A DNA stretch of 64,000 nucleotides from a virus. The notes under the pieces are model-generated. The model searched no databases. It saw nothing but the letters and a program-made list of their open reading frames with translations, and was not told where the DNA came from. A program made the position numbers and the translations under genes. Numbering within the stretch: the first letter of the stretch is position 1; every line of letters begins with the position of its first letter. This document shows positions 2,025 to 55,350 of the stretch, one piece after another. Where the stretch lies: positions 1 through 64,000 of IMG/VR virus record IMGVR_UViG_3300025600_000001, one strand, 5' to 3'.

Positions 2025-2588
2025 CTAATTTATTTTATTTGACTTTACAATATTATCTCTCCACCATAAAGGTTGAAAGTTTGTGTAATGACACAGATTA
2101 ATTACTTCTTCTTCAGTTTTAGCAATAGATATAGGAACAATGTGATCTATATGATATCCAAATCTACTAAAATCTTTTAATGTAATTCCTTCTGGACATT
2201 TTGCTAAAATATAATTTATAAAAAATTCTATAGAACATCCTAATATATCTACAGTTTTACTTTTCTTTACAAATGACTTAACTCCTCGTTTAAAAGATTT
2301 AGTAATTAAAGATCTTAATACGTTACTAAATTTAAAGAAAGAATCTTTTTCTAATCTACGTCTTATATAATTAACGTGAATTATATTTGATCTTTCTCTA
2401 TTTTCTTTTTGCCATAATCTACTAGTCTGATTAAGTTTTTCTTTATTTTGTAATCTATATTCTTTTAATTCTTTCTTATGGTCATCATTCCAATCTAAAG
2501 ACTTTTGATTTAATCTTTCTTTATTTTCTAGTCTCCAAATTTTATCTTTTTCAGGATTAGGTCTTTTGTATTTAGTTTCTGTAATCAT
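2025..2588 (-). CDS. HNH-type endonuclease (putative free-standing homing endonuclease)
   Basis: C-terminal YHIDHIVPIS...LCHYTNFQPLWWRDNIVKSNK motif; basic helical N-terminal repeats. Confidence 0.75.
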   Translation of the reverse strand: MITETKYKRPNPEKDKIWRLENKERLNQKSLDWNDDHKKELKEYRLQNKEKLNQTSRLWQKENRERSNIIHVNYIRRRLEKDSFFKFSNVLRSLITKSFKRGVKSFVKKSKTVDILGCSIEFFINYILAKCPEGITLKDFSRFGYHIDHIVPISIAKTEEEVINLCHYTNFQPLWWRDNIVKSNKIN

Positions 2589-2603
2589 CTGATTTATAGA
2601 TAT

Positions 2604-3794
2604 TTATGGGATGAACATAATGTAATAACAACCCATTCCAGGTTGAATATTATTATGAGCTGAACTTGATCCTTTAGGTCCTACTGTAGTTGTTACAATT
2701 ATATTAGTAGTAGTACTAGAAGTTCTTCCTATTGTTGGACTAATAAAACTTCCTGTAGTTAGATAACGAAAATCATTAGCATCAGTAGTATCAGCTTTAT
2801 AATTTGGATAGACAGTACTAGTTAATGAAGTTGCTCCTGTATCTTCACTACCAACATCTGTATTATATTGAAAATGAAAATGTGAATCATTAGTAACGAC
2901 AGAAGGTGCAGTATGTATATGTGTAGGCATTTGTGATTCTGATAGTGTTATAGAATTAGTACCAGTTTTTGAAAATAATGTATAAGTAGGATTGAATCCT
3001 CCTGGTAATACTGCCGAGTCCATTGATATAAGTCCTGGAGTATTAGTACAACCAACTCCTACTCTTCCTCTTTTATCAGGAGTGCCATTAGCACCGTTAC
3101 AGAGAAACACATTTAACCATGCTCCATAACCTATTCCATCAGGACCAAATCCATTAAGACCAACAGGATAGTTTGTTAGATCTCCATAGTATTCTACTAC
3201 TGTAAATGGAACCATCTTAGAAGACATCAATCCTCCTACAGAAACACTATTCAGATAAGCTTGAATTATTGAATTTAATTGAGGACCTATTGTAGCATAG
3301 TTTGTATGTAACTCATTTGAAAGAGCAATTAAATTAGTATTAGTCGAACAAAGTTTATTAATTACAGCTTGTATAATAATATGTGTATCATCTGCAGGAA
3401 GTAAGTCTGTAGGAAAACAATCTACAGGAAGTGTGTAATCAGTATTTAATGCTATTAACTCATCGTTGATTGCATCTATCTGAGTTTGTAAATCACATGC
3501 TGCTCTTATTACGGCAACAAATAAATCTACAATAGTTATATCTCCACATGTAGGAAGATAGTTACTAACTATTGTACATGCTGTAGGTTGACAATAGGTT
3601 TCTGGAGGAATATCAATTTTTATTCCTGTACCATCTATTACAGATGTAAGAAATCCCATAAGAGTTTGCTCAATATATGATAGAGAGTCACCATTCTTAA
3701 TACCTAAAATAGGAATATCAACTCCTGTATATTTTACACATTTATCAGAAGTAATTTCTGAGCAATTGTTGAAACAATTTGAACAATTAGACAT
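2604..3794 (-). CDS. Tail protein with C-terminal tail-collar-like domain
   Basis: FLCNGANGTPDKRGRVGVG...TLSESQMPTHIH...SAHNNIQP...YYIM is typical of phage tail-collar domains; Cys-rich N-terminus. Confidence 0.7.
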   Translation of the reverse strand: MSNCSNCFNNCSEITSDKCVKYTGVDIPILGIKNGDSLSYIEQTLMGFLTSVIDGTGIKIDIPPETYCQPTACTIVSNYLPTCGDITIVDLFVAVIRAACDLQTQIDAINDELIALNTDYTLPVDCFPTDLLPADDTHIIIQAVINKLCSTNTNLIALSNELHTNYATIGPQLNSIIQAYLNSVSVGGLMSSKMVPFTVVEYYGDLTNYPVGLNGFGPDGIGYGAWLNVFLCNGANGTPDKRGRVGVGCTNTPGLISMDSAVLPGGFNPTYTLFSKTGTNSITLSESQMPTHIHTAPSVVTNDSHFHFQYNTDVGSEDTGATSLTSTVYPNYKADTTDANDFRYLTTGSFISPTIGRTSSTTTNIIVTTTVGPKGSSSAHNNIQPGMGCYYIMFIP

Positions 3795-38197: not shown

Positions 38198-38689
38198 ATG
38201 AAAGAAATATTATTAAGCAAGTATGGTAAAAATAAGGGCAAATATGTTGCCTTAGTTGACGATGAAGATTACGAAAGAGTAAATAAATTAAATTGGTATA
38301 TTAAAATTCGCAAATCGAATAATTTATATTACGCTGTTCGTCAATTTGCACATAATAATAAGATGAAATGTCAATTTATGCACTCATATATACTTGGTTT
38401 GCCTATGATTGATCACAAAGATCATAATGGATTAAATAATCAGAGATTAAATCTAAGAGAATGCACCACAATTCAAAATTGTCAAAATCAAAGAATTAGT
38501 TTAAATGGCAGTTCAATTTATAAAGGGGTAAATTGGAATAATTACAGTAAAAAATGGGTTTCTCAAATTGGGGTCAATTATAGGCGTATTTTCATTGGTA
38601 GATTTAAAGACGAAATAGAAGCAGCAAAAGCCTATGATGCAAAAGCAAAAGAATTGTTTGGAGAATTTGCATTTGTTAATTTTAAATAA
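38198..38689 (+). CDS. HNH endonuclease with C-terminal AP2 DNA-binding domain
   Basis: IDHKDHNGLNNQRLNLR; SIYKGVNW....KWVSQI......IGRFKDEIEAAKAYD. Confidence 0.9.
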   Translation: MKEILLSKYGKNKGKYVALVDDEDYERVNKLNWYIKIRKSNNLYYAVRQFAHNNKMKCQFMHSYILGLPMIDHKDHNGLNNQRLNLRECTTIQNCQNQRISLNGSSIYKGVNWNNYSKKWVSQIGVNYRRIFIGRFKDEIEAAKAYDAKAKELFGEFAFVNFK

Positions 38690-42097: not shown

Positions 42098-42369
42098 ATG
42101 AATCCTCAAACTAAAGATCTTATTGATTATATATTTAGATATATATTAGCTCTTGTTGTAATTATAGGTCTTATAATTGTAATAGTGTTCATGTTTACAC
42201 ATAATATCAGTGGTATATATATACTGATACAATCACTCTATGTATAGGAGCACTTCTTGGTTCATATACCACTATAATCTCTTATGAATGGGGATCATCT
42301 AAAGGATCTTCAGATAAAACTACGATGCTTCACAATAGCACACCAATAATTCCAGAAAAAGAAAATTAA
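42098..42369 (+). pseudogene. Frameshifted two-TM holin-like membrane protein
   Basis: MNPQTKDLIDYIFRYILALVVIIGLIIVIVFMFTHNISG continues in another frame as TDTITLCIGALLGSYTTIISYEWGSSKGSSDKT...KEN*. The break lies in the (TA)5 run at 42214-42223. TATATTTG promoter element at 42066-42073. Confidence 0.65.
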
Positions 42370-42373
42370 TAAT

Positions 42374-43432
42374 ATGAGTTTTGAACAATTATCAAAAGAA
42401 GTTGAGAATGGTATGAAGGGACTCAACAATGGAATACCTATGGGATTTGATAGACTAAATAGATATATAGGAATTCGTAAAAGAATTCTTACTATGGTGT
42501 TTGGAGCTAGTGGATCTGGAAAATCTGCATATGTACATTCAGCATATATATTAAATCCTGCTGAGTGGTATATAAAAACTCGACCTAAAGATGTTAAGTT
42601 TAAAGTGATATTATTTTCTATGGAAAGAAGTAAAATATATACACTTGCTAAATGGATGAGTAGAAAGATATTTGTTGATCAAGGTATTTTAATACCTATT
42701 CCAAAGTTACTAGGATGGTGGGATGTAAAACTCACAAAAGATGAACATGATTTATTTTTAGCTTATAAAGATTATTTGAACGAACTTCTTGAAATAGTAG
42801 ATATTATAGAAGGAGCTCAAAATCCAACAGCAATTTATAAATATGTAAGGAGATATGCAGAAGATAATGGTAGATTTGAGCAAGTAGATGAATATACTAA
42901 AGTATACATACCAAATCATCCTAATGAAATAGTTATTCCTATAGAAGATCATTTAGGAATCACAAAACTTGAGAAAGGGCAATCTAATAAAAAAGAAGCT
43001 ATTGATAAAGTTTCAGAATATAATCAATGGTTTAGAGACATGTTAGGATATTCTCCTGTTACCGTTAGTCAACTTACAAGAGGTTTAAATAATCCAGCAT
43101 TTCGAAAAATGGATTCGTTTGAACCAACTATAGATGATATCAAGGAGAGTGGAAGACCTGGAGAAGATAGTGATGTAATTACTAGTCTTTTTGATCCAAT
43201 TAGGTATCAGACAAATGATCCTAGTTATAAAGTAGAAAACTTTATAGATGAGACTACAGGAGGAAAATTCTTTAGAAGTATCAAACTTCTTAAAAGTACA
43301 TATTCAGAAGACGATATTCGTATTGGTATGGGATTTCACGGAGCTACTGGAATTTTTAAAGAATTACCTAAAGGTAGAAACATGGATGGATTTGACTATA
43401 GTTCATTATTTAATGGTAGTTATTTTGTTTGA
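42374..43432 (+). CDS. DnaB-like replicative helicase
   Basis: Walker A GASGSGKS, FSME, IEDH, VSQLTR and IKESG motifs. Confidence 0.85.
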   Translation: MSFEQLSKEVENGMKGLNNGIPMGFDRLNRYIGIRKRILTMVFGASGSGKSAYVHSAYILNPAEWYIKTRPKDVKFKVILFSMERSKIYTLAKWMSRKIFVDQGILIPIPKLLGWWDVKLTKDEHDLFLAYKDYLNELLEIVDIIEGAQNPTAIYKYVRRYAEDNGRFEQVDEYTKVYIPNHPNEIVIPIEDHLGITKLEKGQSNKKEAIDKVSEYNQWFRDMLGYSPVTVSQLTRGLNNPAFRKMDSFEPTIDDIKESGRPGEDSDVITSLFDPIRYQTNDPSYKVENFIDETTGGKFFRSIKLLKSTYSEDDIRIGMGFHGATGIFKELPKGRNMDGFDYSSLFNGSYFV

Positions 43433-43455
43433 CAAAACACTAAAAATTTATAAAA

Positions 43456-43841
43456 ATGAAAAAATTAAAAGGAAAAACATTAGATGAACTTCTAGAAGAT
43501 ATTCAAGTACTAGAAATAGATGAAGAAGTATGTAGAATAAATTATACTCCTGGACTAATTGGATGGTATGGCGTAATAAATGATCATTGTATTATTGCTT
43601 ATTTTAGAAAAGAAAAGAATGCTCTTAGATTTAGATTAGATTACATTAATCAAATATTAAATAGTATATGAAAAGATATGTATTTGCTATAACGATTACA
43701 GGATTTGGAGAAACTCCTGATGAAGCATGGAAAGATGCTGTTGAAGCTACTAATCTTGAAGATGATCCTATACCTGAAGAGGATATATACGATGAGTATG
43801 AAATGGATGATGATGAAGAAGTAGAGGACTATAGGAATTAG
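43456..43841 (+). other. Two small ORFs (43456-43671 and acidic 43668-43841)
   Basis: ATGA-coupled short ORFs. Confidence 0.5.
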
Positions 43842-43920
43842 AGATCAACGACAATCTGAATTTGCAGATATGTGGATTCAAAGTGGAATGTTTGGTATAT
43901 TAAATCTATGTCCTAGTTGA
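43831..43920 (+). pseudogene. Orphaned 5' stub of the SF2 helicase gene
   Basis: IGIRDQRQSEFADMWIQSGMFGILNLCPS* aligns with MEDIRTRRQREFANLWLESNMMNIMNLCPR of 44763..45845. Confidence 0.85.
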
Positions 43921-43951
43921 TAATTAAATTGTAATTTTGTATATTTGTACT

Positions 43952-44776
43952 ATGGAAATAAATAAAAATTTAATTAGAGTTTCTGGTATCTATAAGATAG
44001 AGAATATAGAAACAAAAGAATGTTATATAGGGAGTACCTTAAATATTTACAATAGAGCACATTCCTATAAATGCTTAGGAAAACAAAATAAAATTCATAG
44101 TACAAATTTACAAAAAGCAATAAATAACTATGGAATAGATATTTTTACTTTAGAAGTTTTAGAAAAAGTATATTTTGAAGAAGGTGTTTTAAAAAGTGAA
44201 AAATTGAAAATTCTTCACGATAAAGAACAAATATATTCCGATAATACTAATCTAAAATATAATAAAAGAAAAAATATTAATAAAAATACTGGAATAACTC
44301 TATCAAAAGAAACCAAAGAAAAAGTATCTACAACTCTTAAACGAATTTTTAAAGATGGTACAAGAATAATAGGAAGAATTTATTCTCATAATATAAAAGT
44401 ATCTATGTTTACAATTACTGGAACTTTTATTAAAGATTTTCCTGGATTAGCCCATTGTGCAGAATATTTAAATGTATCACCCTCATCAATCAATTATGCG
44501 TTAAAAAGCAAAAGACATGTTATAAAAAATCATATTATATTGAAACTTCAAGATAAAGATGAAATTAAAAATTTTATAAATATTCCATTAAATAAAAATA
44601 CTAATGGAAAAGCTATAAAAATTCTAGATACATTAGACGATAGTATACTGGAATTTATAAATTGTAAAACTTGTGCAAATATTATAAAATGTAAAGTTGA
44701 TACAATAGTTATTGGTTATAAAAAAAATAGATTAATTAAAAAAAGATATAAAGTAATAACCTATGGAAGATATTAG
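43952..44776 (+). CDS. GIY-YIG homing endonuclease (likely start ATG 43952)
   Basis: SGIYKIENIETKECYIGS motif; own promoter TATATTTG at 43940-43947. Confidence 0.85.
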   Translation: MEINKNLIRVSGIYKIENIETKECYIGSTLNIYNRAHSYKCLGKQNKIHSTNLQKAINNYGIDIFTLEVLEKVYFEEGVLKSEKLKILHDKEQIYSDNTNLKYNKRKNINKNTGITLSKETKEKVSTTLKRIFKDGTRIIGRIYSHNIKVSMFTITGTFIKDFPGLAHCAEYLNVSPSSINYALKSKRHVIKNHIILKLQDKDEIKNFINIPLNKNTNGKAIKILDTLDDSILEFINCKTCANIIKCKVDTIVIGYKKNRLIKKRYKVITYGRY

Positions 44777-45845
44777 AACGAGAAGACAACGTGAGTTTGC
44801 TAATTTATGGTTAGAGTCTAATATGATGAATATCATGAATTTGTGTCCCAGATTTGGAAAAATTAGAGTTGCTATAAATATCCTTGAACAGTTAAATCCT
44901 CATTGTACAGTATTAATTACTTATCCTGACAATAAAATAAGACATTCTTGGGAAGAGGATTTTGTAAAAAGAGGATATAATAATCCTAATATAACATTTA
45001 CTACACATCTTTCTCTCAAGAAATATGTAGATAAGATATTTGATATTATCATAATAGATGAAATACATCTAATTTCCACTGCACAAATGGAAATCTGCAA
45101 AGAACTTTTTAAAGAAAATCATGTAATGTTGGGTCTTACAGGTACATTAGCATCAGATACTAAAAATTGGTTACTATCTGCTTTGCATTTACCAGTAGTA
45201 GCAAATTACTCTATCAGTCAAGCTATATCTGAAGGAGTAATATCAGACTATGATATTACAGTTATTAAAGTTCCTTTGGATACAACAACTCTACAGGTTT
45301 ATAAGAAGCAACGTAAAACTGAGAAACAACAATTTGATATGCTCTCTTACGTTATTAATAAACAACAACAAGAAGGAAGAGATACAATGTTTATGCGTTT
45401 AGCTAGAATGAGAATTATTCAAAACAGTTTAAGTAAAATAAATAAAACTAAAGAAATACTAAAACAGTATGAAAATAATAGAATATTGGTCTTTTGTGGT
45501 ATTACAGCAGTTGCTGATAGTTTGGATATACCTTCTTTTCATAGTAAGTCAACCAATAAAATGACTTTTCAAAATTTTACAGAAGGCAATATTAAGCATT
45601 TGGCAGTTGTCAAAATTGGTGCTACAGGAATAACCTATAAACCTTTAAATCAGATAATTATAAATTATTTTGATAGTAATGCAGAAGATTTAGCACAAAA
45701 ATTGAACAGAGCTATGTCTTTTGAATACGATAATCCAGAGAAGAAGGCTCATATAACAATCATATGTTCAACAGAATCTGTCGAGCTTTTGTGGTTGAAG
45801 AAGGCTTTAGAATTTTTTAGTCCAGAAAAAATTAAATATCTATAA
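44763..45845 (+). CDS. Superfamily 2 helicase (DExH)
   Basis: CPRFGK (motif I), IIIDEIH (II), GLTGT (III). Confidence 0.85.
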   Translation: MEDIRTRRQREFANLWLESNMMNIMNLCPRFGKIRVAINILEQLNPHCTVLITYPDNKIRHSWEEDFVKRGYNNPNITFTTHLSLKKYVDKIFDIIIIDEIHLISTAQMEICKELFKENHVMLGLTGTLASDTKNWLLSALHLPVVANYSISQAISEGVISDYDITVIKVPLDTTTLQVYKKQRKTEKQQFDMLSYVINKQQQEGRDTMFMRLARMRIIQNSLSKINKTKEILKQYENNRILVFCGITAVADSLDIPSFHSKSTNKMTFQNFTEGNIKHLAVVKIGATGITYKPLNQIIINYFDSNAEDLAQKLNRAMSFEYDNPEKKAHITIICSTESVELLWLKKALEFFSPEKIKYL

Positions 45846-46047
45846 TATGAAACAAGAAATTGCTGATATTAAAAAAGTATTAGAAGAATTAAATATTTCA
45901 GTAGAAAAAATCAAATCTATTACTATTAAATGGGAAAAGATTTTTCCAAATAAAGCTTTTCCAAGAATAAAAATTAAACTATTTAATGATTCTAACGAAA
46001 AAAATGAGTAACTTTAAAACAGAAATAATAAAAAAAATTAGAAAATT

Positions 46048-46878
46048 ATGGAGAAAGAAGATGTAATATTACCAGATGAAATTAGTAAAGTAGTTATATC
46101 AGCACCAAGAGATCTTGCTATAATTGGAATTCCTAAAAGTGGAAAAGGAACTATATTAGGAAATTTTACATTAACTCATAATGCTCTTGTACTAGATCTT
46201 GAAAAAGGAGGATATGAATATATTCCTGCTAGAAAAATGTCTACTTATACAGGACAGGAAACAAGTCAATGGGAAAGTTTTCAAAACTTTATTAAATATC
46301 GTAATCTTTTATTGGAAAATAAAGGAAAATATGAATATCTAATTATAGATGGATTATCCGATCTTGATAGTTTATCCGACCTCGGTGGAACTCTGTCTTA
46401 TATGAATGGAATTATAGGTAAGAATTTTAATAGACCTAAATTAGCAAATGGATTATATGGTGAAAAATATAAACCGACTGATCCAGAGTTTAAATCAGTA
46501 TTAACATTACCTGATGGGGCTGGTTATATGAGTACTCGAAATTGGTTTCTTCAACAAATTGAAATGTTTAGACAAATAGCACCATATAGAATTTATGCTG
46601 CTCATATTGCTGATAAATATATTAAAGATAATGGAAAAGAAGAAGTGATAGGTAGTGAAATTTCTCTTACTGGAAAATTAAAAACAATTTTTGCAAGTAG
46701 AGTGACTGCTTTAGCAAAATTGGTAGTAGATGAGAATGAACGTTATCTTAATTTTGATGTTCAAAATGATAGTATTGTTGCAGGAAGTAGATCTCCTAAA
46801 TTGAAAGGAAAGATACTAATTTCAAGACAAGAATCAGATGGAACTATAATAACCTTTTGGGATAATATTTATGGATAA
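46048..46878 (+). CDS. AAA_24 / Sak4-like P-loop ATPase
   Basis: GIPKSGKGT, LDLEKG, LIIDG and AAH motifs; lies upstream of the SSB-like gene. Confidence 0.75.
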   Translation: MEKEDVILPDEISKVVISAPRDLAIIGIPKSGKGTILGNFTLTHNALVLDLEKGGYEYIPARKMSTYTGQETSQWESFQNFIKYRNLLLENKGKYEYLIIDGLSDLDSLSDLGGTLSYMNGIIGKNFNRPKLANGLYGEKYKPTDPEFKSVLTLPDGAGYMSTRNWFLQQIEMFRQIAPYRIYAAHIADKYIKDNGKEEVIGSEISLTGKLKTIFASRVTALAKLVVDENERYLNFDVQNDSIVAGSRSPKLKGKILISRQESDGTIITFWDNIYG

Positions 46879-47530
46879 CACTTTTTGTATATACGTATTT
46901 TCTGATCAATGGGGTGTACCAAAATATGTTGGTAAAGCTAAAGATTTTGCAAAAAGAATGGATGAGCATCTAAATAGAGATAGATTTAGATATAGTTCTA
47001 CTTGGTTCTATAGATGGTTAAATAAACAAATTGCAAACGATATAGAATTCTTTATGGATATATTAGAGGAAGTTACTCAGGAAACTTGGATAGAAAGGGA
47101 AATCTATTGGATAAAACATATTAAAGATAATGGATACAGATTAACAAATATGACTAATGGTGGGGATGGCAACAATAATCAAATCCATACTAAAGAGAGT
47201 AGATTAAAAAGATCCAAAAGAATGATGGGACACGAGGTCTCTGAAGAAACAAGAAAACGTATATCAAAAGGTCTCACTGGTAAAGTGATATCTAAAGAAA
47301 CTAGAAAGAAGTTATCTAATCTTAATAAAGGAAAAATATGTTTAGAATCTACTAAACTAAAATTTTCAAAAGTAATAGATCAATATGATTTAGCTAAGAA
47401 TTTTATTCAAAGTTTTACTTCTCTAACTAATGCTGCAATCTTTTTAAATTGTAGAAAATCATCTTTGAGTAATGCTATGAAAAGAAAAATTAATGGTAGA
47501 TTTAAAAACTATTTATGGAAATATAAATAA
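46871..47530 (+). CDS. GIY-YIG homing endonuclease with NUMOD3/NUMOD1-like domains
   Basis: CIYVF...KYVGKA; REIYWI..LTNMTNGGDG; SEETRKRIS repeats; IDQYDL...WKYK. Confidence 0.85.
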   Translation: MDNTFCIYVFSDQWGVPKYVGKAKDFAKRMDEHLNRDRFRYSSTWFYRWLNKQIANDIEFFMDILEEVTQETWIEREIYWIKHIKDNGYRLTNMTNGGDGNNNQIHTKESRLKRSKRMMGHEVSEETRKRISKGLTGKVISKETRKKLSNLNKGKICLESTKLKFSKVIDQYDLAKNFIQSFTSLTNAAIFLNCRKSSLSNAMKRKINGRFKNYLWKYK

Positions 47531-47568
47531 AACAAGTAATTAATTAAAACAAGTAAAAATTAAAAGCT

Positions 47569-48450
47569 ATGGCAATTGGTGGAGAAAAACGTGAGCATAC
47601 TAGCTTACCAGATTATGTAAAACGCATAGGTCTTTTCGAGGCTAAAGTAATTGCAGTTAATCCTGCAGCAGATGAGTATAAAACTTTACTAGGATATGAT
47701 CTGAAAGAAGATAGTAAAGAATGTGATTATCTAAGTGTTAACGATGCTGGGAATACTATTCTTAGAATCAATATTTGGTTGGAAGATGTGAAAACATCTA
47801 ACAATGATCAACCAAGTAGATATAAGGTGACCTTTTTCCTGGAGAATAAGGAAAGAGAAAATAAGGATCTAACCAAGAAACAGTATATTAATGAACTTGG
47901 TAGTTGTACATGGGCAGACGATCCTAATAATCTTAAAGAATGGTTTACTGCTCGTGAATATCGTGTAGCATATAATGGAGAAGAAGATCTTTACAATTTT
48001 ATGCGTACATGGTTGTGTGAATTGGATTATAAACAAGATGTCACTGTTTTACAAATTCCGTGGAAATCTTTAATGAAAGGAAATGTAAAAGAAATTAAAG
48101 AACAAATTAATGGTGAATGGTGTGGTAATATTGGCGCATTGGCTACAATTAACACTAAAGAGAAAGATGGAGACATTAAAGAGTACCAATCCGTCTATAA
48201 TAAGGCATTTCTGCCTATATATGCCCTTAAAAACTTTAGATTGATAGATTATAGCAATCCGAAGATAATCGAGGCTATAAAGGCTAAAAAGCCTAAAGAT
48301 CAGAAAGCTCATGAAAAATTTGTTTTAAATGTAACAGGGGAGTTTGGGTGTCGCGATAGTTACCTCCTTAAAGATATTAAAGATTATAACAGCGAAGAAT
48401 TCCTAGTGGCAAGTAATAAGGTGATATCAGAGGAAGGAGACGACTATTAA
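47569..48450 (+). CDS. Putative single-stranded DNA-binding protein (crAss-like)
   Basis: KVIAVNP motif, acidic C-terminal tail (EEGDDY), position after the ATPase. Confidence 0.6.
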   Translation: MAIGGEKREHTSLPDYVKRIGLFEAKVIAVNPAADEYKTLLGYDLKEDSKECDYLSVNDAGNTILRINIWLEDVKTSNNDQPSRYKVTFFLENKERENKDLTKKQYINELGSCTWADDPNNLKEWFTAREYRVAYNGEEDLYNFMRTWLCELDYKQDVTVLQIPWKSLMKGNVKEIKEQINGEWCGNIGALATINTKEKDGDIKEYQSVYNKAFLPIYALKNFRLIDYSNPKIIEAIKAKKPKDQKAHEKFVLNVTGEFGCRDSYLLKDIKDYNSEEFLVASNKVISEEGDDY

Positions 48451-48568: not shown

Positions 48569-49387
48569 ATGTATAACAAGAATAGAAAAGAGCAAGTTAA
48601 AAATCTTTGGGATACTGGATTAGGAGCTACAGAAATATCTAAATTTTTAAATATTTCAATAAGTAATGTTTCAACTTATTTAACACAATCCTTAGGATCA
48701 GGTAGAAAAGGAAGATTTATTTATAAAAGAAGAATATTTACGCTAAATGAATCTTTTTTTGAAAATATAGATACAGAAGCAAAAGCTTATTTTTTAGGAC
48801 TACTTGCTGCAGATGGTAATTTAAGTAGTTCTCAGAATTCAGTTAGAATAGGATTGCATGAAAAAGATAAAGAAATATTAGAGTGTTTTCGAGAAAATCT
48901 AAATTATACAAAACCTCTAAAATTTGTTAAAAAAGTTAAAGAACCTGGATGGAATAGAAGTGATCAGTATTTATTAGAAATAAGCTCAACTATTTTTAGG
49001 AAAAGTTTAGAGAAACATGGATTAACACCAAACAAATCTCTCACATTAGTTTTCCCAACAACTATTCCTTTAGAGTATCAACATGATTATATTAGAGGAT
49101 ATTTTGATGGTAATGGTTGTATTCATATAGACAAACGAGATCACGGTAGTATAATTATTGCTAGTAGTGAGATGTTTTCTAAAAGTCTTATTGAAGTATT
49201 ACAAACTTTTGGTATTAGATCAAGTACATCTAAACACTATAAAGCTAATTGTTTTTATACTCGTTCATTTGGATATGATAATGTAGAGAATTTTTATAAT
49301 TTCATGTATAAAGATTCTACTATTTTTCTTGATAGAAAAAAACAAATATTTGAAAATTGGATAAATAAAAGAAATAAGAAATTATGA
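48569..49387 (+). CDS. LAGLIDADG homing endonuclease
   Basis: YFLGLLAADG and YIRGYFDGNG motifs; promoter-like TATCTTTA at 48546. Confidence 0.85.
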   Translation: MYNKNRKEQVKNLWDTGLGATEISKFLNISISNVSTYLTQSLGSGRKGRFIYKRRIFTLNESFFENIDTEAKAYFLGLLAADGNLSSSQNSVRIGLHEKDKEILECFRENLNYTKPLKFVKKVKEPGWNRSDQYLLEISSTIFRKSLEKHGLTPNKSLTLVFPTTIPLEYQHDYIRGYFDGNGCIHIDKRDHGSIIIASSEMFSKSLIEVLQTFGIRSSTSKHYKANCFYTRSFGYDNVENFYNFMYKDSTIFLDRKKQIFENWINKRNKKL

Positions 49388-52028: not shown

Positions 52029-52118
52029 ATGTCAGACATTAAGACGTACAAAGTATCACAAGCAGCAATGCTAGCAGTGCTGCCACCAGAATCCACAAGA
52101 ACGTATAATTCTTCATAA
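52029..52118 (+). pseudogene. Orphaned 5' stub of the DUF932-like gene
   Basis: MSDIKTYKVSQAAMLAVLPPESTRTYNSS* aligns with MKESYSVSKAMLISTPIPESTRTYKSFS of 53124..53999. Confidence 0.85.
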
Positions 52119-52155
52119 ATTTTGAAATGTCATAGGAATTAGTTACATTTGGAAT

Positions 52156-53127
52156 ATGAAAAATATAACTATAAATTTTATATTAGCAAGAACTTCTGCT
52201 AATTATGAAGATATACATTGTACTGGTATATATAGAATATATCACATCATTAAACCATCTATTTTTTACATTGGAAGTGCTTCTTCTAATAAAAGATGGA
52301 GAGAGGGTTTTAAACAACGATGGGTAGAACATATCAAAGAACTTCGTAAAAACATTCATCATTCTCCATTCTTACAAAGAGTTATTAATTTATATGGAAT
52401 AGAAGGATTAAGATTTGAAATAATTGAAAAATGTGAATCTTCTATATGCATACGTAAAGAACAATTTTGGTTAGATTTTTATAAACCATTTAAAAATAAA
52501 GGTTATAATACTTGTAAAATTGCAGGAAGTTCTATGGGTTATAAATTTTCTGAAGATCAAATAAAAAATAGAAAAAAAATATTTCAATATGATTTAAAAG
52601 GTAAATTCATTGAAGAATATAAAAGTTTAACTGATGCAGCAAAACAAACAAATACTAGAATTAATGAAATCAAAGATTGTGCTAAAAAAAGAATACAATA
52701 TACGAAAGGACATATATGGAGATATGAAAAAGAAAGTGTAGATTCTATATTTCATATTAAGATTTTTAAGATAGCGTGCTACTTTGATGGACAATTTCAA
52801 TTTGTAGATTCTTTACAAAAAGTAGAAGAAAAAACAAAAGTCCATAAAAAGTTTATTTATAACTGTATTAATAAAAATCTAAATAAAACATCTAATAATT
52901 GGTTATTTAGAAAATACGATATTGAAAATTGTCCAGAAAAAATTGATTGTGTTACAGTATTAAGATATAAATATGAACTTATAGAAAATGAAAAATCTAT
53001 CATTTTTAATACGTTAATATTATTAACAAGTTATTTAAAAGTTCATAGAAAATATTTTGAAGAAAAAATGAAAGTAACAAATGAAATAGTTTTTAATAAT
53101 AAAATAATTAAAAAATTAATAAAATGA
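52156..53127 (+). CDS. GIY-YIG homing endonuclease with NUMOD1-like domain
   Basis: TGIYRIYHIIKPSIFYIGS motif; promoter TTTG(52121)-N19-TACATTTG(52144-52151). Confidence 0.85.
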   Translation: MKNITINFILARTSANYEDIHCTGIYRIYHIIKPSIFYIGSASSNKRWREGFKQRWVEHIKELRKNIHHSPFLQRVINLYGIEGLRFEIIEKCESSICIRKEQFWLDFYKPFKNKGYNTCKIAGSSMGYKFSEDQIKNRKKIFQYDLKGKFIEEYKSLTDAAKQTNTRINEIKDCAKKRIQYTKGHIWRYEKESVDSIFHIKIFKIACYFDGQFQFVDSLQKVEEKTKVHKKFIYNCINKNLNKTSNNWLFRKYDIENCPEKIDCVTVLRYKYELIENEKSIIFNTLILLTSYLKVHRKYFEEKMKVTNEIVFNNKIIKKLIK

Positions 53128-53999
53128 AAGAAAGTTATTCAGTTTCTAAAGCAATGTTAATAAGTACACCTATACCAGAGAGTACTCGTACTTATAAAAG
53201 TTTTTCTCACAAACAGTTAATAGATTTAACTCTTGAGGGTATTCACCATGCAGGATTTCAAGTGGGAAAAGAATTATATTCTTCTGCAAAAGATGGTCTT
53301 GTAGCTAATGGAAGATATACTATAGCAAATATAGCTGATTCAGAAATGCAATTACAAATTACATGGAGAAATAGTTATAATAAAAGTTTACCACTAACCT
53401 TTTCACTCGGTGCTATGGTGTTAGTATGTTCCAATGGAATGCAAAAATCTCAAGGAATGGGATCTTTTAAGAAAAAACATCAAGGACAAATTCAAAGTTT
53501 TACTCCACAAGCTATAGGCGAATACATCAAAGGAGCTGAAGAAGTATTTAAACAAATGCAAATAGAAAGAGAGCAAATGAAACAAGTCACACTCTCAAGA
53601 ACGCTGCAAGCAGAGATTATAGGAAAAATGTTTATAGAAGCAGAATTTATTAAGTCTACTCAATTGAATATTATCAAAAGAGAACTTGATAATCCTACAC
53701 ATGATTATGGAGATCCTAATAGTTTGTGGTCATTGTATAATTATACAACTTTTGCAATGCGTGAATTGCATCCATCTTTATATCTACAGGATCATATTGA
53801 TGCTCATTCATTCTTTGTCACTGAATCAGGAATCATAGTTAATACTCCTGAACCTATTACAATTCGTCCTGTAGAAGATAAGAGACAATTAAACTTGTTT
53901 GATGAACTTCTTAATCAAGAAACAGAAGAAGTCTTGGCTGAAGTGTATAATAGTGAAGAAGAAGAAGAAGAGGAAGAATGGGAACCAGAACAACTATAG
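53124..53999 (+). CDS. DUF932/DUF945-like protein
   Basis: WRNSYNKS...GAMVLVCSNGM...KKKH...SLWSLYN motifs. Confidence 0.75.
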   Translation: MKESYSVSKAMLISTPIPESTRTYKSFSHKQLIDLTLEGIHHAGFQVGKELYSSAKDGLVANGRYTIANIADSEMQLQITWRNSYNKSLPLTFSLGAMVLVCSNGMQKSQGMGSFKKKHQGQIQSFTPQAIGEYIKGAEEVFKQMQIEREQMKQVTLSRTLQAEIIGKMFIEAEFIKSTQLNIIKRELDNPTHDYGDPNSLWSLYNYTTFAMRELHPSLYLQDHIDAHSFFVTESGIIVNTPEPITIRPVEDKRQLNLFDELLNQETEEVLAEVYNSEEEEEEEEWEPEQL

Positions 54000-54369: not shown

Positions 54370-55350
54370 ATGACATATTTTAAACTTACTCCAGAAATTC
54401 ATAAAAATATAGCAGATGAATATATTTCATCTATAACTACTCAACAAGATTTAGCAAAAAAATATAATGTTAGTACAGTTATGATTTCAAATATATTAAA
54501 AAAATTTAAAATTCCTACAGATCATCGAAGAGGATTTTATAATGTAGATATTAATTATTTTAAAATTATAGATACACCTAATAAATCATATTTTTTAGGT
54601 TTATTTCATGCCGATGGAAGTAACTCTGAGGAGCATAACTGTGTTAGAATTTCTTTACAGGAAAAGGATAAAGAAATATTAGAAAAATTAAAAAAAGATA
54701 TAAAATATTCAGGTCCTTTATATTATTTAAAAAAACAAGGAAATAGAAGTAATCAATTTTCATTAAATATTGTAGCAAAAGAATTATCACAAGATTTGGT
54801 AATTCTAGGTTATCCTAAGAATAAAACTTACAAAGTAGTATTTCCAGAATACTTAGAACAGTCATTAGTAAGACATTTTATTAGAGGATTGTTCGATGGA
54901 GATGGATGTATTCATGCTAAATATAAACATAGTTTAAGTATCGTTGGTACATGTAATACTTTGTTAGGAGTAAAAGATTATTTACAAGAAATATTAAATA
55001 TAAATTCTGTAATAGTAGAAAGTAAATCTAAAAATATATTTAGATTAAGTATATGTAAAAAGATAGATATATTCAATACATTATGTCATTTATATGAAAA
55101 TAGTGAATTGTATTTACAAAGAAAATATGACATCTTTCATCAAGTGTACATGATTCAGAAAGAACATTTATATTGGCAAATATACTGTAAAAATTTAAAA
55201 ACTAATGAAATTAATATTTTTAAAAATATGCAAGAAACTAAAGAATTTTTTGGATTAAAATCCTATGCAGCAATATCTTATTGTATCCATAAAAGTAAAA
55301 CTAAAATTTTTAGAAAAACGTATTATATAAATTTATTGAAAAATGAATAA
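54370..55350 (+). CDS. LAGLIDADG homing endonuclease
   Basis: YFLGLFHADG and FIRGLFDGDG motifs; promoter TTTG(54310)-N20-TATATTTG(54334-54341). Confidence 0.85.
   Translation: MTYFKLTPEIHKNIADEYISSITTQQDLAKKYNVSTVMISNILKKFKIPTDHRRGFYNVDINYFKIIDTPNKSYFLGLFHADGSNSEEHNCVRISLQEKDKEILEKLKKDIKYSGPLYYLKKQGNRSNQFSLNIVAKELSQDLVILGYPKNKTYKVVFPEYLEQSLVRHFIRGLFDGDGCIHAKYKHSLSIVGTCNTLLGVKDYLQEILNINSVIVESKSKNIFRLSICKKIDIFNTLCHLYENSELYLQRKYDIFHQVYMIQKEHLYWQIYCKNLKTNEINIFKNMQETKEFFGLKSYAAISYCIHKSKTKIFRKTYYINLLKNE

Follow-up and report, generated by a model that had tools for sequence, protein, structure and literature searches.

Can a homing endonuclease gene settle within the coding sequence of a helicase and leave that gene complete, by replacing its start? 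The question is raised by the replication module of a virus whose genome is a record of 117,568 bases with direct terminal repeats (IMG/VR record IMGVR_UViG_3300025600_000001). The first 64 kb of that record make up the stretch analysed here, called the window below. In this module, a GIY-YIG endonuclease gene lies between a complete superfamily 2 (SF2) helicase gene and an upstream stub that resembles the first codons of the same helicase. To our knowledge, homing endonuclease genes have been thought to persist in essential genes only by way of self-splicing introns, inteins or the splitting of the gene. Comparative analysis of the locus leads us to propose, with a probability of about 0.85, that it harbours a free-standing GIY-YIG homing cassette of about 0.94 kb that would have entered the helicase coding sequence and replaced its start. 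The site of the cassette is the codons for the motif I (Walker A-like) peptide N-L-C-P-R/F-G-K, the slash marking the insertion. It consists of a leader, which holds a promoter-like TAnnTTTG box, followed by the endonuclease gene and by substitute helicase codons 1 to ~31.

A displaced helicase start upstream of the endonuclease gene

The stub reads IGIRDQRQSEFADMWIQSGMFGILNLCPS followed by a stop codon, and the intact gene at 44763 begins MEDIRTRRQREFANLWLESNMMNIMNLCPRFGK. In a local alignment with BLOSUM62 the two reach a score of 92, against 17.1 +/- 3.7 for shuffled sequences, none of 2000 of which attains 92. The likeness is stronger still to the helicase start of L001 (the same contig as L009), a 5.7-kb contig of an endonuclease-free relative, with a score of 135 (shuffles 18.4 +/- 4.1; 0/2000 reach 135). 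The best unrelated place found in a six-frame scan of the window with the stub scores 43, and a protein search of the virus's own 117.6-kb genome yielded the stub as sole second match, with an expectation value (E) of 1e-5. As the score of the stub is far above those of shuffles and unrelated places, its likeness to the helicase start is beyond chance. The remnant of the SF2 helicase start that a preliminary description of the locus had placed before the endonuclease is therefore present, and its similarity remains significant against shuffled controls.

The genes and segments of the locus follow one another on the + strand in the order DnaB-like helicase, 71-codon open reading frame (ORF), 57-codon ORF, stub, leader, endonuclease and SF2 helicase:

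42374..43432, + strand: DnaB-like replicative helicase gene, left flank, resident lineage (Pfam DnaB_C, E 4e-9; PHROG 19)
43456..43671, + strand: resident 71-codon ORF, 94% identical to L001 1841-2056
43668..43841, + strand: acidic ORF of 57 codons, following the 71-codon ORF and preceding the stub (from the ORF list)
43831..43920, + strand: stub, displaced 5' part of the resident helicase (likeness to L001 and shuffle test)
43919..43951, + strand: cassette leader of 33 bases, with the promoter-like TATATTTG at 43940-43947 (read from the sequence)
43952..44776, + strand: GIY-YIG homing endonuclease gene of 274 codons, with a NUMOD1-like DNA-binding region (Pfam, PHROG, profile)
44763..44854, + strand: helicase 5' end brought by the cassette as a replacement, comprising codons 1-30 and two further bases (sequence and ORF list)
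44763..45845, + strand: complete SF2 helicase gene of 360 codons (Pfam ResIII and Helicase_C; PHROG 16, 'DNA helicase')
44855..45346, + strand: tract right of the junction, foreign relative to L001, a candidate co-conversion tract (identity profile)

Where does the stub come from? In L001 the helicase gene directly follows the 71-codon ORF, whose stop overlaps the helicase ATG, with no endonuclease gene between them. The stub and the L001 helicase start share 24/26 residues and 61/78 bases, whereas the stub and the neighbouring intact copy, 0.9 kb downstream, share only 15/26 residues and 46/78 bases. Being nearer L001 than its own neighbour, the stub is the old, once functional start of the resident gene and not a copy of the current one. 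The codons that differ between stub and L001 comprise 10 synonymous and 2 non-synonymous changes; with 10/12 of them synonymous, the stub diverged while it was still functional.

The stub has since decayed. It lacks an ATG, as the preliminary description had pointed out: codon 1 is ATA, and an in-frame TAG is found three codons upstream (43822-43824). Its ATA GGA ATT AGA aligns with ATG AAT ATT CGG of L001, and the lost start is thus most simply a decayed ATG, in keeping with the decay after replacement that had been suggested. Codons 3-28 are intact, and the Arg codon lacks one base, which yields Ser-TGA; the stub ends within the codons of the motif I peptide CPR/FGK. The loss of the start codon and of one base indicates that the insertion is not fresh. 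The helicase gene downstream has all of its 360 codons, of which 1-29 are duplicated by the stub, unlike the arrangement of a gene split in two pieces.

The layout is not an assembly error, since contigs from two runs, which probably correspond to the source samples, span stub, endonuclease and helicase with 0 differences. The contigs of these runs show no joint across the cassette and no empty-site form. Beyond the two probable source samples, a single further run, with a small share, was identified.

The same junction in other contigs

Two sets of loci, 86 around relatives of the window helicase and 80 around relatives of the helicase of L089, were compared (167 with the window). L089 is a piece of a 112-kb viral contig, found with an alignment of the window endonuclease and its five closer homologues. 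Its gene order is a DnaB-like gene (by translation likeness), a 227-codon ORF, a stub, a leader, an endonuclease gene and a complete helicase gene. The L089 stub reads MSIRDLRQKEFADVWLKEKHGILNLCPR, then LLITF and a stop. Endonuclease and helicase genes overlap at the helicase ATG, which in the window sits 14 bases inside the end of the endonuclease gene. L089-type endonucleases, 42% identical to that of the window, are encoded in L089/L169 (one contig), L170 and L176, in each case directly before the helicase, and the corresponding stubs each end ...TGTCCAAGGTT.

Second copies of the helicase start are rare. Among the 167 loci they were detected, beyond the window, only in L089/L169, L170, L176 and L205. 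A 23-base search of 166 loci and the window gave 117 matches, five of which are away from the gene's own motif I, and these five correspond one to one to the stubs of L169, L170, L176, L205 and the window. An ATG is still present in the stubs of L089, L176 and L205. In L205 (2150-3008), a stub ending CCAAGG TAA is followed by three small ORFs of 73, 95 and 78 codons and then by the helicase. The three ORFs match no Pfam family and there is no endonuclease at this locus; they seem to have taken the place of the endonuclease later. In the first set, 81 loci show the helicase start, and an endonuclease directly upstream of it is found in 0/81; the 19 larger ORFs found upstream of the helicase in that set have no nuclease domain. 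In L046, one NUMOD1 match falls within a DnaB gene that is split, away from the helicase gene. A reading by eye of the 227-codon ORF of L089 and L172 as 'ParB-like' was dropped, as it has no Pfam match.

From the alignment of window (TGTCCTAG-TTGATAATTA) and L089 (TGTCCAAGGTTGTTAATAAC) junctions, together with the empty site in L172, the junction follows AGR-TT, so that two bases of the Phe codon precede it. When compared with empty sites, the cassette is inserted inside helicase codon 31 and not between genes. The preliminary description had the similarity end at motif I, which holds, and inside the Arg codon, which was right to within 2-3 bases, the junction being 2 bases further right. In endonuclease-free orthologues, the breakpoint falls in the same codon both in L001, for the window lineage, and in L172, for the sister cassette (98-100% identity).

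An empty site and transfer between genomes

The helicase of L172, of 357 codons, is uninterrupted and begins with the sequence of the L089 stub. All 16 segments of 50 bases on the left, up to the junction at ...TGTCCAAGGTT, show 98-100% identity between L172 and L169. To the right, the first three such segments are 82%, 24% and 92% identical, and those that follow mostly 100%. The low identity just beyond the junction indicates that ~100 bases were imported with the cassette. The 11 bases TGTCCAAGGTT are found at both ends of the ~0.94-kb insertion that distinguishes L169 from L172.

As for the cassette itself, L169 and L176 are 98-100% identical from 2154 to 3304, except for one segment at 92%. 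This stretch comprises the leader, the endonuclease gene and the first ~350 bases of the helicase. From 1704 to 2153, that is, over the left flank and the first half of the stub, seven of nine segments are 70-84% identical and two 96%; the last 50 bases of the stub are 96% identical. Such a pattern is what homing into two different genomes would predict, and it suggests that the donor stub may serve as left homology arm. Presence and absence among close relatives with conversion of the flanks is thus found in the L172/L169 and L169/L176 pairs, the window cassette having the more distant L001 for comparison. Insertion at helicase motif I with replacement of the start, as first proposed for the window, is supported by the recurrence of the same junction with a related endonuclease and by the empty site of L172.

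A hybrid helicase gene

The intact helicase of the window is composite. Residues 1-30 lack a close match (at most 63%), L010 comes nearest for residues 31-150 (75%), and residues 196-360 are 100% identical to L001. These segment-wise differences in best match show that the gene at 44763..45845 is a hybrid between an imported 5' part and an L001-like 3' part, and its first ~150 codons appear to derive from a lineage other than both flanks. At the DNA level, identity to L001 is 75-79% in the left flank; the DnaB-like gene there is 75% identical in DNA and 66% in protein. In 60-base steps, it is 58-77% up to 45232 and 83-87% for 45233-45352; beyond about 45347 and as far as L001 reaches, to window 48150 (L001 2637-5746), it is 100% (99.96-100%). 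The cassette is therefore best described as carrying replacement codons 1 to ~31, with further import to about codon 150-195.

The 100% tract also contains an ordinary intergenic GIY-YIG/NUMOD1/NUMOD3 gene (46871-47530), identical in L001 and the window. The tract at 45347-48150 may be the conversion tract of this second endonuclease.

The endonuclease and its leader

The protein encoded at 43952..44776 scores 24.0 bits with Pfam GIY-YIG (PF01541), above the cut-off of 22.6, and 21.8 bits with NUMOD1, just under the cut-off of 22.8; its L089 homologue reaches 26.5 bits with NUMOD1. It matches PHROG 314 and others annotated 'homing endonuclease'. A profile of six homologues matches the catalytic domain of I-TevI (1mk0/1ln0, E 3e-9), and GIY, Y..G, R and further positions are invariant across the six aligned sequences. 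Seven relatives were identified in a protein collection, five at 43-51% identity and two at 27-31%; the nearest, at 51% and 49%, are on contigs of about 1 kb. A single-protein search of 2.9 million viral contigs gave 14 pattern matches and no relative. The endonuclease gene is a free-standing ORF with its own start, outside any intron or intein. Rfam reports no family at E up to 1 in window 43400-45200, and no group I intron in L089 and L205 (E up to 0.1) or in L230.

TAnnTTTG is the -7 box of Bacteroidota promoters. It is present exactly four bases before the endonuclease ATG here (43940-43954), at 52144-52158 of the window and in L089. Both + strand matches of TAnnTTTG-N4-ATG in the window coincide with the starts of the two stub-type endonuclease genes, and a third in the genome, at 104959, falls inside opposite-strand genes. 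The positions of these matches, rather than their counts, are suggestive of a promoter role, and the spacing would give a leaderless or nearly leaderless message. As for the putative -33 element, said to overlap the TGA of the stub, its sole basis is GTTG at 43916-43919, 20 bases before TATATTTG; in L089, the TTTG that matches this element is not at the junction.

A second stub-type arrangement is present at 52029-53999 of the window. A 29-codon stub (MSDIKTYKVSQAAMLAVLPPESTRTYNSS, then a stop) is followed by the gene of a 323-codon NUMOD1 protein and a complete DUF932 gene. The NUMOD1 protein has a GIY...YIG-like start and is preceded by TACATTTG-N4-ATG; the DUF932 ATG overlaps the endonuclease stop.

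Target spelling and putative immunity

I-TevI cleaves at a CNNNG motif, of which C1 and G5 are critical (PMC5009752). The endonuclease-free alleles of our set show strong DNA conservation around the junction. All four distinct stubs (4/4) contain AATCTATG, together with the CNNNG word CTATG located 5-9 bases upstream of the Arg codon; this stub-type spelling is found in L012 and L172, for example, as ...AATCTATGTCCAAGGTTTGG... Among cassette-linked intact alleles, AATCTATG occurs in 0/3 distinct sequences and so does CNNNG, the corresponding words being TTGTG, GCTTG and CTCGC. Endonuclease-free alleles are mixed. AATCTATG is present in 25/86 distinct 23-mers, and CNNNG 5-9 bases before the Arg codon in 60/115 distinct 63-mers, 47 of them with CTATG. 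The cassette-borne 5' end of the window differs from the stub-type target at 7/23 positions and has no CTATG. These spellings fit an enzyme that would nick at CTATG, the cassette's own copy being protected. In the window, a synonymous CTA-to-TTG change in the Leu codon would be part of this putative protection.

How the cassette may move, and what else could account for the locus

A series of steps can be proposed. In a mixed infection, the enzyme would cut endonuclease-free helicase alleles at or near AAT CTA TGY CCN AGR TT. The break is repaired from the cassette-bearing genome, as genome comparison shows, with the left end probably pairing with the donor stub and the right end with the helicase gene beyond motif I. 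At the first invasion, the left end would have been joined by one-sided, illegitimate repair. The recipient gains the leader, the endonuclease, a new gene start and a donor helicase stretch of variable length, and its own first 29-30 codons remain upstream as a decay-prone stub. The helicase stays a complete open gene throughout, with no intron, intein or splitting. The re-spelled target of the cassette would protect its carrier from its own enzyme, the pattern of spellings being observed and its meaning our interpretation. Taken together, the recurring junction, the empty site and the transfer between backgrounds indicate an element that homes into coding sequence with a re-spelled replacement 5' end, by a putative cleavage.

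Several observations weigh against this proposal. The pattern of target spellings was noticed after looking, and it involves few independent alleles, 4 from stubs and 3 linked to a cassette (Fisher p 0.03). The window lineage has a single endonuclease-free relative, L001, which is not near-identical to it (75-79% DNA identity on the left). Moreover, the target region of L001 is spelled like the protected copy of the window (GAATTTGTGTCCCAGATT), which makes L001 an endonuclease-free but not demonstrably sensitive allele. Searches for the window-type endonuclease gave no near-identical second copy, the closest being 51% identical, and recent mobility is thus shown only for the sister, L089-type cassette. 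The cut site of the window enzyme, and even its activity, are putative. The L205 stub, with no endonuclease, shows that a stub can outlive the endonuclease. The TAnnTTTG box is not enriched in the window (86 found, 99 expected), nor is TAnnTTTG-N4-ATG significantly so (4 against 2.1 expected, with 17/100 shuffles reaching 4). Lastly, the boundary at 45347 may reflect a different exchange, such as homing of the GIY-YIG gene at 46871-47530.

Some of these points would be accommodated if the layout arose as proposed but the cassette were here an old, vertically inherited relic, with an endonuclease that is inactive or has run out of sensitive targets. The window stub has lost its ATG and one base, the endonuclease has no close copy in the 2.9 million viral contigs and none closer than 51% in the protein collection, and the nearest endonuclease-free relative, L001, already has a protected-like spelling. 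We nevertheless regard a relic as unlikely. The endonuclease reading frame is intact, with GIY, Y..G, R and other positions invariant across six homologues, its Pfam GIY-YIG score passes the cut-off, and both the promoter-like box and the overlap with the helicase start have been kept. Targets also appear to remain, as 25/86 distinct endonuclease-free 23-mers hold the AATCTATG common to all four stubs.

An ordinary intergenic endonuclease gene might instead have come along with a donor helicase in one illegitimate recombination, the end of the stub at motif I being coincidental. One-sided illegitimate repair of double-strand breaks at microhomologies is documented for T4 intron homing (PMC2988022), and the absence of a directly upstream endonuclease from all 81 informative loci of the first set would agree with a single event. 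Yet the AGR-TT junction is identical to the base in four other contigs, with three stub spellings and two endonuclease lineages only 42% identical, and a cassette 98-100% identical is found in two backgrounds, so that we consider such an accident highly improbable. Least credible of all is that the stub is exon 1 of a helicase gene with a group I intron holding the endonuclease, splicing joining ...CPR to FGK... Two homologues (P0004 and P0005) are indeed named 'group I intron endonuclease' by a source, and the stub ATG is retained in L089, L176 and L205. However, the Rfam searches gave no intron, whether in the window (E up to 1) or in L089 and L205 (E up to 0.1). The downstream gene is complete and has a start and codons 1-30 of its own, and the window stub has no start codon and is frameshifted.

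Returning to the start-replacing cassette, we also lean, with much less assurance, towards a broader reading whose parts are to be taken jointly. The element would represent a distinct class of homing elements, the 'start-replacing cassette', in phages of a freshwater or peat group. Its endonuclease gene would occupy the most conserved codons of an essential gene with no need for an intron, an intein or splitting. The unit, made of its own promoter, the endonuclease, a cut-immune re-spelled start and the stub of the previous host as left arm, would amount to a self-contained gene drive. Its insertion point at helicase motif I would have been kept while the endonuclease diverged to 42%, and a second gene of the genome would have been hit likewise. 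The end of the stub and CTATG would mark the insertion and cleavage sites, and synonymous Leu changes (CTA to TTG/TTA) would decide sensitivity.

Relation to known homing systems

In fungal mitochondria, gene hybrids made by mobile endonuclease ORFs (mORFs) affect atp6 of Allomyces macrogynus and atp6, atp9, cox2 and nad3 of Glomus sp. (PMC3630166); the Allomyces case was reportedly described by Paquin et al. in 1994. As at our locus, an endonuclease gene (LAGLIDADG or GIY-YIG) is inserted in coding sequence, a foreign gene end is in frame with the host gene, and the native end is a displaced duplicate. In both cases, the native copy is nearer to relatives than the inserted one (91-98% against 64-81% for mORFs, PMC3630166; 24/26 against 15/26 residues in the window). 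In contrast, the mORF hybrids have their 3' (C-terminal) end replaced, with the native end downstream, in organelle genomes (PMC3630166), while in the window it is the 5' end, with the native start upstream, in a phage. As the window element replaces a 5' end with its start codon, the cassette must also supply translation initiation.

The WHO elements of Torulaspora and Lachancea yeasts, which home into FBA1, offer a second parallel (Coughlan et al. 2020, PMC7282813). They home without splicing, as the window cassette would, replace the end of the host gene with each integration and leave gene-end remnants; they cut alleles without the element. WHO proteins are HO-like endonucleases related to inteins, the elements reside in nuclear genomes and they replace the 3' end of the gene (PMC7282813), unlike the GIY-YIG enzyme, the phage genome and the 5' end of our case. 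The window cassette works like mORF hybrids and WHO elements and belongs to neither family.

Among phages, the free-standing endonucleases of T-even phages (SegB, SegF, SegG and MobE; 'intronless homing') resemble the present system in their presence/absence polymorphism, in the co-conversion of flanks and in having their target in an adjoining conserved gene (PMC2988022, PMC2330249, PMC2790892). They share with the window a GIY-YIG enzyme encoded outside any intron (PMC2988022). Nevertheless, the T-even endonuclease genes sit between genes, whereas the window cassette is inside helicase codon 31 (PMC2988022). Where such genes do interrupt coding sequence, as mobE in Aeh1 nrdA, mobA in T4 gene 39/60 and seg in phage 25 gene 43, the host gene is split in two working pieces, while in the window the gene is whole and accompanied by a duplicate stub (PMC2988022). 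The word stem 'duplicat' is absent from this 2010 review of T-even elements (PMC2988022). One-sided illegitimate repair of the T4 intron provides an entry route with one-sided homology and thus a possible origin of the first stub; it was a laboratory observation on an intron, whereas the window design is a recurring natural cassette with a fixed junction (PMC2988022). In the literature searched, which included few subscription-journal papers, we found no description of a phage endonuclease cassette that replaces the 5' end of a gene.

Gene-start replacement thus appears as a third way for a homing endonuclease gene to persist, documented in phage by occupied sites, empty sites and transfer between backgrounds. 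The design would explain short 'orphan' ORFs and pseudo-starts beside endonuclease genes, which annotators otherwise miscall, and such elements would shuffle the 5' parts of replication genes among phages. From the end of a stub, a natural footprint, one can predict both where the cassette inserts and which motif an uncharacterised GIY-YIG enzyme may cleave. Furthermore, an enzyme-target pair for which nature provides putatively sensitive and immune spellings can be tested directly in vitro.

Other features of the locus and its relatives

A DNA search of 42300-46100 against 50,697 phage records gave no match. By protein, the nearest cultured relatives of the virus are Flavobacterium phages, at 27-30% identity (29/30 records), and a Bacteroidota host is only a guess. 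The resident 71-codon ORF matches no Pfam or PHROG family. The TAG of the 57-codon ORF overlaps stub codons 3-4; this ORF is absent from L001, has no homologue among the 86 helicase loci and falls into none of the Pfam or PHROG families. At window 45395-45428 and 45814-45863, the contigs assembled from each of the two probable source runs are broken, and contigs of low depth (about 4-16 versus 280-550) branch off. These breaks hint at a rarer related phage co-occurring in the source samples.

The replication region is dense with endonuclease-type genes. Those at 38198-38689, 48569-49387 and 54370-55350 comprise one ORF with weak AP2 and HNH_3 matches, both below Pfam cut-offs, and two LAGLIDADG_3 genes. 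Among the relatives, the helicase of L230 (1633-3786) is interrupted at motif II, between ...VVIVD and ...SEAQ..., by the gene of a 260-codon NUMOD1 protein with a GIY-YIG-like start. It is either a split gene or an unrecognised intron, with no Rfam intron at this place. Another GIY-YIG family, with NUMOD3 in L176 (4113-4664), is encoded directly after the helicase stop; post-helicase GIY-YIG genes are also found in L210, L211, L213, L201, L198, L075/L214, L234 and L183. In L176, the last ~200 bases of the helicase are only 62-76% identical to L169, as after conversion on the 3' side. The DnaB-like gene has 644 codons in L003/L082 (2057-3991), with an insert that is intein-like by eye; in L005 and L006 (904-3756), two ORFs, of 245 and 226 codons, break it up.

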